This document shows positions 27,649 to 45,600 of a stretch of DNA of 64,000 nt, in pieces. Numbering within the stretch: the stretch's first letter is position 1; each line of letters opens with the position of its first letter. The DNA comes from an uncultured delta proteobacterium (GTDB lineage Bacteria; Desulfobacterota; Desulfobaccia; Desulfobaccales; 0-14-0-80-60-11), in assembly GCA_963812015.1 (NCBI GenBank), contig CAWETI010000002.1, positions 1,120,001 to 1,184,000 of the forward strand, read 5' to 3'. Position numbers: made by a program.

Positions 27649-30600
27649 TGACATCTAACACAGTCGCTCTCCCCCATTGGGGGAGAGGGGATGAGGCCGG
27701 AACGCATCTGGCGCCCCGATTAATAATCCAGAAATTATTTTTTCCCCAGAAACTCATAACCAAAACTAACAAATGCCTTAGCCCGCGGCGGCTTCTTGGG
27801 GGCGGAGGCACTTGAGGCTGTAGTCGGCGGTCTTGAAGGCGTTCAGGACGCGGTCCATGACCGCGTCGGAGGACAGGGCCAGGTCAAGCTGGCGGCAGAA
27901 GGCGATGAGCAGCCCGGCCAGCTCCAGGGCCTGCTCCGTTTCCAGGAGGGAGAGCTTGACCAGCCGGCCCTGGACCAGGTCCCCCTTGGCCTGGGCCTTG
28001 AAGCCCAGGTCGTCCAGGAGCTGCTTGACCAGGCGGGCCCGGCGCTCCCGGCGGTCGATTTGGGCGGCCCCGCCCTTGAACTGGAAGCTGATGTAATTGT
28101 CGTTTTTCTCCTCGGAGATGAAGGCGTCGACGATGCCGAAATGGTAGCCGATCCGGGAGTTGAAATTGAGGTAGGACTCGGTGACGATGGCGAAGCTCTT
28201 GCCCCCCAGGCCCCGCTCCGCCTTGGCGGTGTCGTACATGGTGTTGGCGAAGACCGAGATGAAGCCCTTGAGGTCCGGGGCCACCTGGCCGGCCCAACTC
28301 ACCCCGGGGTGGTGAAAGCCCCGGAGGAGGGCCTTAAAGGGCCGGCTGAGGATGTCGTCCTCGGTCACCTGGTCCTGGCCCGTGACTCTTAAGCCGCCCC
28401 CCAGGTCCAGGATGAACAGGTTCAGGGGCAGGTCGGTCTTTAGGCGGCTGACGCGGTTGGATTCCAGGGCTTTTTCCATGTCCGGGATGAACATGGCGTC
28501 CATGGCCTTTTCGTGGCAGAACCGGGTGATGTCGTGGAGGGTGCTGCAGTTGGCGGCCTTAAACTCCGGGCTGCCGGGGTCGAGGAGATGCAATCGGGAA
28601 ATGAGCTTCAAGATGCGGCGCAATTTTTTATAAACCGGGTCGGCGTGCCATTCTTCATCAGGCTCCACCCGGCGGGCCAGCAGTTCGGGCATGAGGCCGG
28701 GATAAATTAGGGCGGCGTCGGCATCCACGGTCACCAGTTGGCCGGAGTGAAGGATCTTGGTGGCGCCGCCCACCTCGACCAGGGTGGGAATCCGGAACTC
28801 CCGGGCCAGGATGGTCATGTGGTCAGTGGGACTCCCCACTTCGGTGATGATGGCGGCAATGCGATCCATGACCAGCACCAGGCGGGCCGAAGGCTGCCTG
28901 GCCACCACCACCGCCCCCGGGGGAATGCTGCCCACATCTTCATCGTAGAGAAAGTGGTGGACCCGGCCGGCGGCCACGCCGCCCACCGCCCGGATGCCAT
29001 AGTGCAGGATGGGGGGGACCATGGGTTCCGGGACGGGGGGGCGCTCTTCTTCGGCAAAGGCCGCGGCGTGGACCCGGAGGGGCCGGGATTGCAGGATGAT
29101 GAGGTTGCCCGCCTCCCCCACGGTCCACTCAATATCCTGGGGGTGGCCGAAATGCTCCTCCAATTCCAGGGCGATATCCGCCAGGGTCCGGACCTGGTCG
29201 TCGGTGAGGCAGGGGGCCTGGGCCTGCTCGGGGGCCAGGACAATTTCCTCCACCCCCCCCTCCGGGCCGCAGGCGAGGGCCACGGGTTTTTCGGCCACCC
29301 GCCGGCTGGTGATGGGGCGGGGTTCCCGGCGGCTCACCGTGAACAGGTCGGGGGATACGGTGCCGTCCACCGCGTATTTGCCCAGGCCCCACACCGCCGA
29401 AATCAGCACGGTGTCGTCCTGGGGGGCGTGGGGGTCCAGGGAAAACATGACACCGCTGGCCCGGGCCGGGACCATGGCGAGGACGCCCACGGCCATGGGG
29501 AGCTCATTGACGGAAAACTGCTGGTACTTCCAGTAGAAAATGGCCCGGGAGGTGAACTTGCTGGCCACAATCTCCTTGTAGTGCTCGGGTAAAGAGGCGG
29601 CGTCGACGTTGAGGAGGGTGGCAAACTGGCCGGCAAAAGAAAATTCGGTGTCTTCCCCCACGGCGCTGGACCGCACCGCCAGCCAGGGGGTGGGCAGGGA
29701 CCGGCCCGCCTGGACGATGGCTTCTTCCAGGTCCAGGGGGAGGGGGGCCTGGCGCACCATGGCCTGCAACTCCTGGCTGATGACCCTGAGGCTGTCCAGG
29801 TCTTGGATGTTGGCCTGGGAGAGCATCGCTTCCAGGTCGGCCGCCAGGCTGGTGGATTCGAGAAAGCGCTTGTAGGCCGCCGCGGTAATGGCAAAGCCCT
29901 GGGGCACCGGCATACCGATGCGGTTGCCGATCTCCCCCAGGTTGGCCATCTTACCCCCCACCGCCGGGGCCAATTCCTGGTTCAGGGCTGACAGGGGCAG
30001 GATAAAGGGGGTATCCGGGATGGTGGGGACCGCTTCCAGGACCTCGTGGAGTTCTTGCCGCAGGCGGTTACAGATGGGAACCAAGTCGTTTTGATAACGA
30101 TTATTGGTGAGCAGGTTGAGGGAAGCCACCATGCCGGCGACCTGCTCGCCCAACTTATCCACCTGGGCATAGAGATAGCTGGAGTCGAAGACGTAATCGC
30201 CGGAAAGTTTTTCTTCCATGTCCGCCATGGTTTCCAGGGCATGGTTGTTGTTGTCCAGGAGGCGGCGGAAATGGATGAATTTTTCCTGCAAGCGGACCTG
30301 TTCCGTCTCTTCAGGTTCTTTGAGAAAGCGCCGCAGGAATTTGAAAACCATAATTACTCCGTGAGCGGTGAACAGTGAGCCGTGAGGAGGTTGTGGGCGG
30401 CACCGGCCTCCTGGCCGGTGAGACGTACGGCAGAGCAGGAGTAGGCCCACATGATCTGGTTCTCCTGCTGAGCGTTCACTGTTTCTTCAGGGCCGCCAGT
30501 TCTCCCTGCATCCGCTTCCACTCCAGGGCCCGCTTGATGGTGATGAGGATGGTCTCCTTGCGGAAGGGCTTGGTGATAAAATCGTAGGCGCCCTTCTGGA

Positions 30601-42600: not shown

Positions 42601-45600
42601 GCCACGGTGTTGGAGCGTTTGGGCTTTACCATGGAGATTTTCGGCGATGTGATCCGGGCCCGCTTCCGCCGACATCCGGCCCCGGAGATGGAGAACCGGC
42701 TGGATCTCGTGGGCCGCCTGATGGCTTACGTGCGACAGATGGATATGATCATGGAGGATGACAACATCAGTCAGGTCCTGGCGGAACGCTTCCTGGAGGG
42801 CCACTATGAACGGCCGGGGCAGGAGGACGAAACCGGGGAGGCCAGCAATCAGCCGGCGGGGTCACCTTAACCAACCCTGGTAATCCGAGGCGTGGAAAAA
42901 ATTATGGACATATACCCGGCGCTGGTTTGTCCCGCCAGATGGGACAAGTTGATGGTGTGCACCGATGCTTCCGGCGAGGGGCAAAACGCGGTGGCGGTTA
43001 CTCTAGAACTGGCCAAAGCCTGCGGCAGCCAGGTTTTCGCCGTGCAGGTGCTGGAAATCGTCCCGGAATTCCAGGCGGTCGCTCCGGATCTCAGGGCCAT
43101 CCTGGGAAAGGAAGTGGAGAAAAATATGGCGGCCATCGAGGCCGCGGCCACCAAACTGGGGGTGCGCCTCCAACCGCTGGTGCCGGAGGGCCAGTTGGCC
43201 CATGTCGCCATTCTGCAGGCCGCCGAGCAGGTGGGCCCCGACCTGATCATCCTGGGCCGGTGCGGAAAAACCGCCCTGGGCCGCATCTTGATGGGCAATG
43301 TCACCGCCCGGGTCATCGGCCACAGCCCGGTAAACGTCCTGGTGGTGCCCCGGGGGGCGGCGGTGGCTTTCCAACGGATTCTGGTCGCCTCGGATGGCTC
43401 CCCGTACAGCCGGGCGGCCTGGGAACTCGGCCTGTCCATGGCTAAACAGGCGAACAGCCAGTTGATCGGGGTGGCGGTGGCGGCGGAGGAAGGCGATATC
43501 ACTGAAACCAGGGCCATCATCGGCCAGATGCTCAGCGCCGCCGACGAGGCCGGGGTGCCCTTTAAAGGGGTTAATCCCCAGGGAGTCGCTCCCGATACCG
43601 GCATCGTCCAGCAGGCCATCAAAAATGAGGTGGACCTGATCATCATGGGCAGCTACGGCCGCACCGGTTTGAAGAAGCTCCTCATGGGGAGCGTTGCCGA
43701 ACGGGTTATCGGCGGCTCCCCCTGTCCCATCTTGGTGGTTAAGAAGGAGTAAAGGGAGGGTCGATTCTGGTTGGGGGTTTTCCCAATCAGGGAAAGGCGC
43801 CGCCCCGGCAGGGCAGGATGTTTTCGGGTCAGGAGAGCGCTTGGCCGCCGAAAACCGAAAACGGTATTTTAACGGTTAATCACCATCTGGAGAAAAACTA
43901 TGTCTGCCACAAGCCCCGCACCCCATTTTCCTAAAGTCCTGGTGTGCACCGACGGGTCCCCCGACAGCGAGGGGGCCATCACCGCCGCCCTGCACCTGGC
44001 CCAAACTGCCGGAAGCACGGTCTTTCTCCTGGAGGTGCTCTACTACCTGGCGGGATATGAGCTGCAGTCGCCGGACACCCTGGCGCCGCCGCTGGTCAAT
44101 CTGGAGCTGATGGAGGCGCAGGAGGCGGCGGTCAAGGAGCGTTTGGCGGCCCGGCAAGCGGCGGCGGCCAAGCTGGGGGTCAGCCTGGAGGCTCGGATCC
44201 GCACCAGTGGCTCGGCCTATGAGGGCATTTTGGAAGAGGCCGGTGAGCTCCAGCCTGACCTGATCATCATGGGCCGCCACGGCTATTCCGGCCTGACCCG
44301 GCTGCTCATGGGGAGCGTCACCGCCCGGGTCATCGGCCACAGCCCCTGCCCCGTTCTGGTGGTGCCCCAGGGGGCCAGCTTAAATTTTCAGTGTCTCTTG
44401 ATCGCCAGCGATGAGTCGCCCTACAGCGAGGCCGCCTGGGCGGAAGCCCTGGCCCTGGCCAAGACCATGGGCAGCTCCTTGATCGGGGTGTCGGTGGCCG
44501 CGACTGACGGAGACATTCCGGCGGCCACCCAGGTGGTCCGGAGCCTGGAGATGGCGGCGGAAGCCCAGGGGATCGCCCTGGACACCATGATTCCCATGGG
44601 CCGGCCGGAAGAGGGCATTGTCAAGGCGGCGGAGTTCAAGCAGGCCAGCCTCATCATCGTCGGCAGCCACGGCCGCACCGGCCTGAAACGACTTCTTATG
44701 GGCTCCGTGGCGGAACGGGTCATCGGCCACGCCAAATGCCCGGTCCTGGTGGTGAAGAAGAAGTAGCGGTCAGCGGTTAGTGGATGAGTTGGTTGTAAGT
44801 AGTGGGGTGCGCCATGCGCAGCCTATAAATACTATGATGAGAGAAATTTTTTAACAATATCCTTCAGATTGCCGATAATGCCAATGTAGCTACGCATCAC
44901 TTATGCCTTCCGCAGGCAGATTAGCTACCCAAAATTCACCTAAAAGTCAGCCACATCTTTCCTCGTCTATGAAGGGGAATGTGCTTGCCGCCTCGCTCTC
45001 AACTCTGGTTATGCATTGCCAGGGGGTGCTGGGCTGAATTCTAAGGATGGAACTCATTGATCTACCCGGTACCCTATGCTCCGGTATGCCTGAAATCTTG
45101 AGGGGAAAAAATTCTTAAAAAAATTTTGGCTAACCTGCCACCCGCTAGACAGGTTGGCTTCGAGAAAAGGGGCGTTTTAGAGGTTAAACTCGGGAGAAGG
45201 CCCCCCTCGTGCTAATTTGGGACGGACCCCCCCCAAGGCTGCCGCATAATCTGGGTTCAATTTAAGTCAATGCATCTAAAGGGGAGTAAATTAAGTAATA
45301 AATTATCAATTTCATCCTTTGATAGATAAGAGGTTAGCCATTACGGCATGAAAATACTTATAGGATTAATAGAACACCTTGACGATATTGTTGCATGTGA
45401 GCCAGTGTCGCGTTATTTGAAGGCAAAATATGATAATGCAAATATTGCATGGGCAGTTTCAAAACCTTACGTAGAGCTCATAGATTCAAATCCAAATATA
45501 GATAAGACCATTATTATGGATTGCCTAACTGACTGGATAAAGCATATAAAACATTCAAAATATAATTATATTGTGGATTTACATGTAAATTATAGAATTT

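Follow-up and report, generated by a model that had tools for sequence, protein, structure and literature searches.

Phosphoenolpyruvate (PEP) synthase (PpsA), pyruvate, phosphate dikinase (PPDK), rifampin phosphotransferase and PigC phosphorylate small molecules, and in Enzyme I of the PTS a swivel histidine phosphorylates a protein.

A Desulfovibrio gene cluster with a dikinase-like member has been studied by transposon mutagenesis in D. vulgaris and D. alaskensis (DVU0251-DVU0245/Dde_0597-Dde_0605; Korte et al., 2014; PMC4001038). In that report, mutants of the TauE gene, of a bare receiver gene and of the dikinase-like gene, annotated as 'PPDK PEP/pyruvate-binding + mobile domain', were all nitrate-resistant in both species. 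The cluster kinase of D. vulgaris is an annotated pseudogene with little phenotype, whereas mutants of the receiver and of the dikinase-like gene show strong effects of equal size. The phosphatase mutant of D. vulgaris was more nitrate-sensitive, but that of D. alaskensis was nitrate-resistant too (fitness +2.08), a result at odds with a simple writer/eraser pair. Mild sickness on thiosulfate is also reported for D. alaskensis mutants of the cluster (unpublished data cited in PMC4001038). The paper gives phenotypes only, without biochemistry. These published genetics stand outside the survey's finding that led to the present analysis, as does the phosphatase partner described below.

The proteins analyzed here, which we label PpsL, are members of a large family of dikinase-type phosphotransferases that is still uncharacterised; literature searches found no biochemical work on any member. 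The genome of an uncultured delta proteobacterium encodes eight of them, and three (about 840–870 aa) lie within the window, the whole stretch of 64,000 nucleotides that was analyzed (contig CAWETI010000002.1, positions 1,120,001 to 1,184,000; positions below count from its first letter). The survey's finding had listed these eight, and a whole-genome search with the C-terminal part gave 11 matched stretches in eight open frames of 841–1065 aa. The features of the locus are as follows.

27778..30351, minus strand: PpsL paralogue 1 (P0001); Pfam PPDK_N 1.1e-89 and PEP-utilizers 4.6e-19, no other family
27817-28638: C-terminal domain of P0001
30476..30880, minus strand: single-domain response regulator, 134 aa, between the kinase and paralogue 1; Pfam Response_reg 2.3e-30
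30902..33346, minus strand: sensor histidine kinase, dCache-PAS-HisKA-HATPase_c (Pfam)
33237..35747, minus strand: PpsL paralogue 2 (P0002), 836 aa; Pfam PPDK_N and PEP-utilizers; ATP-grasp at residues 132-439, swivel at residues 481-552
33243-34022: C-terminal domain of P0002
34200-34202: His516 codon of P0002
about 35397-35747: N-terminal helical domain of P0002
35995..37740, plus strand: CitMHS/Na_sulph_symp-type anion transporter, divergent from paralogue 2; Pfam CitMHS 5.2e-87, Na_sulph_symp 5.2e-18
38068..38511, minus strand: universal stress protein (Usp) closing the small-protein/TauE/Usp operon; Pfam Usp 4.8e-31
38489..39523, minus strand: TauE/SafE-family (TSUP) permease; Pfam TauE 1e-43
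39560..39853, minus strand: small membrane protein accompanying TauE, 97 aa, by alignment with like-placed ORFs
39963..39977, minus strand: sigma-54-type -24/-12 promoter-like site TGGCACGAGCATTGC, about 110 nt upstream of the small-protein/TauE/Usp operon
40252..42870, plus strand: PpsL paralogue 3 (P0003), 872 aa, divergent from the TauE operon; Pfam PPDK_N 3.3e-58, PEP-utilizers 1.2e-15
41992-42810: C-terminal domain of P0003
42892..43752, plus strand: tandem-Usp protein, 286 aa, directly downstream of paralogue 3; Pfam Usp 3.8e-46, two stretches
43900..44766, plus strand: second tandem-Usp protein, 288 aa; Pfam Usp 4e-60, two stretches

The P0001 ORF extends to 30450, and alignment with the seven other paralogues points to Met34 at 30351 as the likely start. 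The real start of the kinase is probably later than in the listed ORF, because this ORF and the end of paralogue 2 share 110 nt.

PpsL proteins contain, in order, a conserved N-terminal three-helix domain (about 120 residues), a PpsA-type ATP-grasp domain, a phosphohistidine swivel domain and a C-terminal domain of about 270 residues. The N-terminal domain, the DASS plus CBS permease context and the sigma-54 control discussed below are additions to the earlier description. Among 18 ORFs scanned with Pfam, those at 27778-30450(-), 33237-35747(-) and 40252-42870(+) match PPDK_N and PEP-utilizers only, and PEP-utilizers_C is found in none of the three. In the genome, this barrel family (PF02896) occurs solely in frames of 596 and 944 aa and in none of the eight PpsL frames, in line with the domain make-up first proposed. 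Also as proposed, an intact PpsA-type front half is supported: P0002 His516 aligns with the phosphohistidine (the T-S-H histidine) of solved PEP synthases (9dae/8a8e), and the ATP-grasp residues K136, R234-S235-S236, E240-D241, E415-W416, Q428 and R430 are nearly invariant among 100 family members.

Public records name such proteins 'pyruvate, water dikinase' or 'phosphoenolpyruvate synthase', and the front half does align with PpsA. It is nevertheless extremely improbable that PpsL proteins are conventional PEP synthases or PPDKs whose C-terminus has diverged, given the absence of PF02896 from all eight, scores of 337, 291 and 238 bits for the three window proteins against NCBIfam PEP-synthase equivalogs (far under the cut-off of 598), a confident C-terminal model that is not a TIM barrel, and the presence in the genome of another gene, PPDK-type and 944 aa long, that does have the barrel. 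The NCBIfam matches end at residues 566–597, and PDB sequence matches on P0002 end by residue 600.

Beyond that point, the C-terminal domain has no match in Pfam, NCBIfam or PDB sequences. The alignment of the eight parts reproduces exactly the 25 invariant columns counted earlier, although identity to the first sequence is 28–35% rather than 31–38%. Across 100 sequences, D612, H618, R761 and D813 are invariant, and C607, H611, R615, E619, D654, S674, Y715, N717, Y724, H725, N740, R758 and D781 are kept in at least 90%; such conservation, at about 17 polar residues, points to a pocket for catalysis or for a ligand. AlphaFold2 models built from 100–150 homologues have pLDDT 91.8 and pTM 0.86 for the domain and pLDDT 90.0 and pTM 0.83 for full-length P0002. 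The modeled domain is alpha/beta, with an antiparallel sheet and helices; Foldseek gave no match at E<=0.001, and VIA against 48161 chains gave a best Z of 6.9 (1tk1_A, rmsd 4.4, 144 aligned) and of 6.7 in a second look. The reported lack of a family or fold match thus persists, and its suspected cause, a poor model from eight sequences, can be dismissed because the confident models are still unmatched. Replacement of the PEP/pyruvate barrel by a conserved domain without a recognised fold is supported.

This domain might be a sensor or regulatory domain instead of an acceptor site, with AMP/Pi or the phosphohistidine state itself as the output, read by nucleotide-binding neighbors. Usp and CBS proteins, which bind adenine nucleotides, do recur alongside PpsL, and the fold searches revealed no enzyme relative. 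Such a role is very doubtful, however, as the domain takes exactly the place where PpsA has its second active-site domain, a swivel without a second site would be purposeless, and the Gly-rich loop with its Arg/His/Asp cluster resembles a phosphate site.

The C-terminal domain family comprises 936 clusters at 50% identity (E<=0.001) and was found, within the phylum, in 119 of the 301 genomes sampled (70 of 200 genera), with several copies in most. In a quick-search tree of 36 PpsL proteins, context-specific clades are each spread across several families, and their contexts are histidine kinase-receiver operons, TauE-Alph_Pro_TM-PpsL-receiver operons and DASS-CBS operons. One apparent fusion was rejected as an artefact.

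After re-annotation, a bare receiver lies in the operons of five of the eight paralogues (four had been claimed), TauE lies within three genes of four, as before, and Usp within three genes of four rather than five; the earlier counts are roughly correct, and too low for receivers. One paralogue (L015) has neither receiver nor permease alongside. The link to histidine kinase/receiver, Usp and TauE genes, previously drawn for the broad PEP-utilizers family, also holds for the PpsL subfamily itself in other genomes. In 20 loci from 20 other genomes, hand-picked for long contigs and different GTDB families and with partly wrong ORF calls where GC is high, a bare receiver stands next to PpsL, or with just the kinase in between, in 13, TauE is present in 10, DASS with CBS in four, a permease of either kind in 14 and Usp in four; two have neither receiver nor permease. 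The ORF at 39560-39853 matches no Pfam family but aligns with five like-placed ORFs at five other loci (eight invariant columns), and by this alignment is a member of a conserved small-membrane-protein family beside TauE. TGGCACGAGCATTGC is the sole exact sigma-54-type match in the window, where the six sites with at most one mismatch are not above chance (mean 4.7); like-placed sites occur upstream of operons at L012, L067 and L072. With the 384-aa Cys-phosphatase of L079 as query, a PpsL C-terminal-domain ORF lies within 1.5 kb in 22 of 24 strong-match loci (E<=1e-60), mostly immediately upstream on the same strand. The phosphatase is thus a near-obligate PpsL partner in other genomes; a search of this genome returned no homologue.

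We propose, with a probability of about 0.45, that PpsL is a signal-controlled dikinase-type writer that phosphorylates a non-pyruvate acceptor and thereby switches its own anion-permease module. The ATP-grasp domain would bind ATP, the swivel histidine would accept the beta-phosphate with release of AMP and Pi, and the swivel would deliver the phosphate to the C-terminal pocket and an acceptor identical for all paralogues. Each old paralogue would have its own input (a Cache-type histidine kinase with a bare receiver, a sigma-54 two-component pair, or CBS/Usp) and its own anion permease (TauE/TSUP with a small partner or Alph_Pro_TM, or a DASS/CitMHS carrier). The product would turn on this permease module, and in many genomes the phosphate would be removed by an adjoining Cys-phosphatase or metallophosphoesterase. 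Judging from the conservation pattern and from what relatives do, we favor a small anionic molecule as the acceptor. The earlier reading is supported in part; a small non-pyruvate substrate and a tie to sulfite export are still conjectural.

Alternatively, the phosphorylated swivel histidine might phosphorylate a protein of the module, most attractively the Asp of the neighboring bare receiver, so that PpsL would stand in for a histidine kinase, driven by conversion of ATP to AMP; partners of the Usp, CBS or permease type could also be modified, on Ser/Thr/Tyr, and the Cys-phosphatase would erase the mark. The receiver gene adjoins PpsL or overlaps it (by 14 nt at L014), phospho-acceptor residues (positions DD, D54, T82, K104) are kept in all 21 PpsL-linked receivers, both phosphoesterase partners (DSP-type and Metallophos) come from families best known for their protein phosphatases, and Enzyme I offers a precedent. 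The contrast between the D. vulgaris kinase pseudogene and its receiver and dikinase-like partners points the same way. This role is still rather unlikely: no receiver is nearby for three of the eight paralogues, for six of the 20 loci or anywhere in the DASS-CBS clade, the near-invariant polar residues exceed the usual need of a docking surface, and a fused PpsL-receiver form is absent among the matches listed.

PpsL could also be a metabolic kinase for the permease cargo, trapping or activating an imported anion or organic acid, with the two-component genes merely inducing the operon. The frequent permease neighbors, the small-molecule chemistry of relatives (named by NCBIfam) and the mild thiosulfate sickness of the D. 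alaskensis mutants would agree. We regard this as distinctly improbable, since all paralogues share the same pocket residues although the carriers (TauE, DASS, CitMHS) are not related to one another, the neighborhood of PpsL holds no conserved genes of a downstream pathway, and a catabolic step does not fit eight copies per genome, bare receivers that lack a DNA-binding domain and a phosphatase dedicated to PpsL. Because of their many context-specific paralogues and phosphatase partners, PpsL proteins look more like signalling writers than metabolic branch enzymes; their role would lie outside central metabolism.

The Desulfovibrio nitrate cluster has the same gene set: a TauE permease, a histidine kinase, a bare receiver and a PPDK_N plus mobile-domain protein without the barrel, placed in the PpsL family (DVU0246/Dde_0604) by the paper's InterPro labels and phosphatase adjacency rather than by sequence alignment. 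A dual-specificity-type phosphatase of the family described above follows; unlike that cluster, this genome lacks such a phosphatase and has its eight PpsL genes in other module variants. PpsA (EC 2.7.9.2) and PPDK share with PpsL the contiguous ATP-grasp and swivel (about 450 aligned residues; positions 5-467 of 798 in NCBIfam PRK06464; PDB 8a8e, 9dae, 2ols), with catalytic His and ATP-site motifs kept. PpsL differs in its C-terminal domain of another, unrecognised fold in place of the TIM barrel, its extra N-terminal domain, its many copies and its signalling/permease operons. Rifampin phosphotransferase, PigC/RedH and other three-domain PpsA-like enzymes also combine ATP-grasp and swivel His (NCBIfam partial matches; PDB 5hv1/5fbs) and act on a non-pyruvate acceptor in a family-specific third domain. 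In the rifampin phosphotransferase/PigC type, however, this domain lies between ATP-grasp and a C-terminal swivel, whereas in PpsL the swivel is central and the new domain last; scores fall far short of the cut-offs (245 against 999 bits), and the C-terminal domains show no similarity.

In plant starch metabolism, glucan, water dikinase and SEX4/LSF2 pair a dikinase writer with a Cys-based DSP eraser on a non-protein substrate; domain order, carbohydrate-binding modules and eukaryotic context differ, and the likeness is one of logic. Enzyme I is a swivel-His enzyme heading a phosphorelay, as PpsL may be, although Enzyme I takes phosphate from PEP via a TIM barrel and has no ATP-grasp, whereas PpsL has the ATP-grasp and no barrel; an HPr-like carrier was not seen in PpsL operons. 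Because of its ATP-splitting and phosphate-carrying parts, its conserved C-terminal domain and its sensor-kinase/receiver and anion-permease neighbors, PpsL is most likely a so far unstudied phosphate-transfer switch of sulfate-reducer-type bacteria. The nitrogen-PTS (PTS-Ntr), whose regulatory targets are ion transporters and sensor kinases and not metabolism, provides a model for how PpsL may work.

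The eight dikinase-like proteins of this genome, termed PpsL, are most likely His-swivel dikinases with a family-specific acceptor domain, misnamed PEP synthase in public records, where they appear as 'pyruvate, water dikinase', 'PEP-utilizing enzyme', 'PEP/pyruvate-binding domain-containing protein' or 'PEP synthase'. An intact dikinase front half is joined to a conserved new C-terminal domain (C-domain), which takes the position of the second active site. Three members lie in the window:

27778-30450, minus strand: P0001, Pfam PPDK_N and PEP-utilizers only
33237-35747, minus strand: P0002, Pfam PPDK_N and PEP-utilizers only
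40252-42870, plus strand: P0003, Pfam PPDK_N and PEP-utilizers only

The ATP-grasp domain PPDK_N (PF01326) is matched by these three at E 1e-58 to 1e-89 and also by all five paralogues elsewhere, and the swivel domain (PF00391, PEP-utilizers) by all eight. His516 of P0002, to which residue numbers refer, aligns with the T-S-H histidine of the PEP synthases 9dae and 8a8e, and all 100 PpsL members of an alignment have it; the same alignment also keeps the ATP-grasp motif residues. Judged by these motifs, the enzyme core is intact. The TIM-barrel family PF02896 (PEP-utilizers_C) has no Pfam match on any of the eight, and genome-wide is found in two ORFs alone, a 596-aa PtsI-like frame and a 944-aa PPDK-like frame. 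NCBIfam PEP-synthase equivalogs cover model positions ~5-470 of ~790 in the window proteins and nothing beyond, with scores of 337.4, 291.2 and 238.3 bits for NF005057 (cut-off 598, not reached) and 325, 275 and 222 bits for TIGR01418 (cut-off 739.75, not reached). Alignment of P0002 with solved PEP synthases stops at about residue 600, and in structure comparison the front half alone accounts for the matches of its full-length model to PpsA, rifampin phosphotransferase and PPDK. A genome search with the C-terminal 277 residues of P0002 gave 11 stretches and eight open frames (841-1065 aa), and the eight C-terminal parts share 25 invariant columns. The survey's finding of eight PEP-synthase front halves lacking PEP-utilizers_C is thus borne out by Pfam, NCBIfam, PDB and genome searches. 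Two points can be added from the alignment: P0001 most likely starts at Met34, and a conserved N-terminal domain of ~120 residues, modelled as three long helices, is common to all eight and matches no Pfam family at E<=1, coiled-coil noise aside. Neither HisKA/DHp nor HATPase_c was matched in Pfam by the eight paralogues, which concerns family membership and not the ability to phosphorylate a receiver.

An exhaustive search for the C-domain gathered homologues in 936 clusters at E<=0.001, of which 696 also pass E<=1e-10; almost all measure ~830-900 aa and end in this domain. Of 301 genomes sampled evenly across the phylum, 119 carry it; the count is 100 among the 259 of high quality, and by genus it is 70 of 200. 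Most carriers among the 301 have several matches, up to about a dozen. A single-protein scan found 16 close P0002 orthologues, and a search for fused forms longer than 1463 aa returned none, which is weak evidence by the tool's own account. Variants include a degenerate 723-aa relative in another genome (L073:3719-5890, minus strand), which follows two intact copies and has a partial PPDK_N (E 8.5e-16), no PEP-utilizers and diverged C-domain motifs. A sub-group of ~1055-1072 aa, comprising one paralogue of this genome (L015, C3:1957565-1960762) and the family member P0240, carries an extra tail of ~200 residues (in L015 at 8565-9191, minus strand), whose concanavalin-A/LamG-like matches are weak and fall below threshold (best E 7.5e-05).

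Full-length P0002 refolded with 100 sequences gave pLDDT 90.0 and pTM 0.83, and the C-domain alone, with 150 rows, 91.8 and 0.86. The modelled C-domain consists of a sheet of eight strands, for the most part antiparallel, together with two long helices and three others, and has no TIM barrel. Foldseek against the PDB gave no match at E<=0.001. In VIA-align over 48161 chains, Z was 5 or more for 20 chains and reached 8 for none, values within the tool's background; the top was coproporphyrinogen oxidase (1tk1_A, Z 6.9, rmsd 4.4, 144 aligned) and, in a second look, the T4 MotA C-terminal domain (1kaf_A, Z 6.7, rmsd 4.0, 105 aligned). Of the 262 residues modelled, these rows take in chiefly 70-243 and hardly touch the first ~70; the candidate folds compared were the bilin reductase/coproporphyrinogen oxidase sandwich, the MotA double wing and the kinase N-lobe. 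For the eight C-domains, Pfam at E<=10 returned two single chance matches and nothing else, a profile search of PDB sequences nothing (best E 0.12), and an Atlas feature search no usable match among named clusters; Atlas structure rows, leads only, were a DUF47/PhoU_div-containing protein (TM 0.50-0.53) and YbjN (0.31). The survey had cautioned that a poor model from few sequences might explain the missing match; as the match is still absent with models of this confidence, a poor model is not the cause. Its absence is compatible with a new fold, without proving one. Near-invariant residues among 100 sequences include C607, H611, D612, R615, H618 and E619 on one helix, a DLGGG loop, Y715, N717, Y724, H725 and N740, and R758, R761, D781 and D813, suggesting that these conserved polar residues might form a catalytic or ligand pocket. 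Written as motifs, the conserved stretches of the C-domain are C-x3-HD-x2-R-x2-HE, DLGGG, NY-x-F-x-F-x-GG and RR-x-RR.

The coupling of PpsL to receiver/kinase pairs, anion permeases and a phosphatase is conserved. The arrangements in this genome, with receiver denoting a single-domain response regulator, are:

Window operon: P0002, Cache/PAS histidine kinase, receiver, P0001 (Pfam)
Beyond P0002: divergent CitMHS-type carrier, then TauE and Usp in one operon with a 97-aa membrane protein
39963-39977: sigma-54-type site, exact match, upstream of the 97-aa protein/TauE/Usp operon
After the TauE operon: P0003, then two tandem-Usp genes (Pfam)
L014: TauE, Alph_Pro_TM, PpsL, receiver; PpsL and receiver overlap by 14 nt
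L016: PpsL, histidine kinase, receiver
L013: histidine kinase, sigma-54 regulator, sigma-54-type site, receiver, PpsL
L012: PpsL, divergent from a Usp, small protein, TauE operon
L015: PpsL with the weak lectin-like tail; neither receiver nor permease

TauE lies three genes from P0002. Its small partner (97-125 aa; window 39560-39853, minus strand; L012:11508-11804; and loci L066, L071, L072 and L077 of other genomes) begins like a signal peptide, contains a 'VVVADTR' stretch and a single membrane helix, and ends in GIDLKSRKIVEH; it matches no Pfam family and is always 5' of this TauE type. Metallophosphoesterase genes adjoin PpsL in L015 and in two other genomes (L067, L078). Four wetland metatranscriptome runs yield short contigs, 95-99% alike, that reach 20-26 of 30 bins; most of this cover falls on P0001, the receiver and the kinase, and very little on P0002. 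As carried-over DNA may contribute, the cover is not counted as a sign of transcription, nor its thinness over P0002 as a sign of silence.

Directly downstream of P0001 is an IS110-family transposase (DEDD_Tnp_IS110 and Transposase_20; 26656-27651, plus strand), beyond which lies another bare receiver (26020-26436, minus strand). The stretch 44800-48000 has a GC content of 0.36-0.50 versus ~0.6 around it and includes an 844-aa ORF (45348-47882, plus strand) with a heptosyltransferase-like Glyco_transf_9 part and a WbsX glycosyltransferase; it looks like an acquired surface-polysaccharide island. Further low-GC stretches are at 1-4000 and 62001-64000.

Twenty loci from 20 other genomes, a non-random sample hand-picked for long contigs and different GTDB families, had the following genes beside PpsL:

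Receiver adjoining, or with only a kinase between: 13 of 20
TauE: 10 of 20
DASS carrier and small CBS protein: 4 of 20
Usp: 4 of 20
Alph_Pro_TM, always as TauE, Alph_Pro_TM, PpsL, receiver: 4 of 20
Neither receiver nor permease: 2 of 20

A quick maximum-likelihood tree, built from 36 PpsL members, sorts them by gene context across families: the TauE-Alph_Pro_TM type comprises five rows from four families, and SH-aLRT values are 100 for the HK-receiver-PpsL type, 99 for the type divergent from small-protein/TauE and 99 for the DASS-CBS type, whose sister is the L016 paralogue of this genome. By this grouping the PpsL paralogues are old, and each has kept its own module. Two distant genomes with TauE-Alph_Pro_TM-PpsL-receiver operons share, 3' of the receiver, homologous proteins of ~270 aa (L014:7797-8603 and L082:4790-5602, both minus strand; 28% identity, E 7e-35) with a Usp-like N-terminus and no Pfam match. 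An LCIB/C-type beta-carbonic-anhydrase-like gene (L064:11682-12392, plus strand), flanked by DASS and CitMHS carriers, lies beside another PpsL.

Apparent fusions of the C-domain with a Cache histidine kinase (997-aa ORFs, L074:4383-7376 and L080:4382-7375) were rejected, their first ~480 residues being wrong-frame low-complexity sequence; the true order in both is PpsL, histidine kinase, receiver(s). The longest ORFs of high-GC L074, L080 and L016:6577-9285 are partly or wholly spurious, as wrong-frame extensions or antisense frames without a family. Longest-ORF annotation of such high-GC genomes calls for caution, genuine genes lying in other frames.

A 384-aa dual-specificity-type Cys-phosphatase follows a kinase and a receiver in one genome (L079:1352-2506, minus strand), with homologues in 59 of 301 genomes. 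A PpsL C-domain ORF lies in the 1.5-kb flank of 22 of the 24 strong loci (E<=1e-60), mostly ending directly 5' of the phosphatase; the other two are the query locus itself and one contig end. None of six weak short matches has such an ORF. The partner (L079, L084-L106; 355-385 aa) comprises an N-terminal dual-specificity-type domain and a C-terminal part of ~200 aa matching no family, which in other genomes is also free-standing in proteins of ~220-260 aa. No homologue was matched in this genome at E<=1e-10, nor seen in the eight PpsL neighbourhoods, and the 268-aa protein encoded 3' of the receiver in L014 is unrelated to it in sequence comparison.

A comparable nitrate cluster is described for D. 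vulgaris Hildenborough and D. alaskensis G20 (Korte et al., 2014; PMC4001038). Table 3 of that study lists TauE (DVU0251), a hypothetical protein, a PtxB-like binding protein, a PAS/HAMP kinase, a bare receiver (DVU0247) and a dual-specificity phosphatase (DVU0245). DVU0246 is a 2235-bp gene with PPDK PEP/pyruvate-binding, ATP-grasp and mobile-domain signatures, and D. vulgaris has the kinase only as a pseudogene (PMC4001038). Mutation of TauE, of the receiver or of the dikinase-like gene confers nitrate resistance, whereas the phosphatase mutant is more nitrate-sensitive in D. vulgaris but not in G20; the authors suggest that nitrate leaks in through a thiosulfate transporter (PMC4001038). 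As described there, the cluster (DVU0246/Dde_0604) shares with the window PPDK_N and a mobile domain without the barrel, together with a receiver, histidine kinase and TauE; it has a dual-specificity phosphatase next door, whereas this genome does not. Because of this phosphatase adjacency, DVU0246 is likely a PpsL member. A literature search, supplements not covered, found no biochemical study of any PpsL member.

PpsL would convert ATP to AMP and Pi, with the beta-phosphate taken up by the swivel His. Carried by the swivel, this phosphate would then reach the C-domain pocket, where a non-pyruvate acceptor, the same for all paralogues, might receive it. The receiver (or CBS/Usp) could gate PpsL, whose product would switch on the neighbouring permease module, and the phosphatase would undo the phosphorylation. 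A small-molecule acceptor is favoured because of the pocket-like conservation and because three of eight paralogues here and six of 20 sampled loci have no receiver. These receiver-less loci argue against the main rival, direct phosphorylation by PpsL of the receiver or another protein, which is kept alive by D. vulgaris, where the kinase is a pseudogene yet the receiver and dikinase-like genes are required (PMC4001038). When P0001, taken from Met34, was modelled as a complex with its neighbouring receiver, the scores were 0.28 and 0.24, under the tool's mark of 0.32, which favours neither side. It seems rather unlikely that PpsL represents a new signalling phosphodonor class, using dikinase chemistry (ATP to AMP and Pi, swivel His~P) on a protein of its own module, above all the adjoining receiver, bypassing or supplementing the histidine kinase and forming with the Cys-phosphatase a writer/eraser switch on anion permeases.

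The identity of the acceptor would explain the gating of TauE/DASS-type sulfur-oxyanion permeases in these bacteria. The nitrate resistance of the Desulfovibrio cluster mutants is the sole genetic handle and bears on nitrate treatment of oil-field souring. PEP synthase and 'pyruvate, water dikinase' labels mislead metabolic reconstructions of sulfate reducers and syntrophs. New here are confident models with the fold match still absent, the conserved-residue list, DASS-CBS as a third context, the context-specific paralogue clades and the count of phosphatase pairing (22/24).

The known His-swivel dikinases are a few enzymes of metabolism and resistance; the PpsL branch is very large (936 clusters at 50% identity, 70 of 200 genera), and its context is signalling and anion transport, not metabolism. 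The sigma-54-dependent, syntrophy-induced cluster DVU0145-0150, described with a receiver and membrane proteins (PMC4265775; PMC4641369), resembles PpsL modules in its TauE-like/small-protein/sigma-54 theme, a likeness at the level of theme only. PpsL matches to NCBIfam models of the rifampin phosphotransferase/PigC type fall in two separate stretches and score below cut-off (RIF_Ptrans_rph, 245 versus 999 bits; PigC, 210 versus 1300 bits). Those enzymes have the order ATP-grasp, acceptor domain and C-terminal swivel, whereas in PpsL the swivel lies at ~480-555 of ~850 residues.
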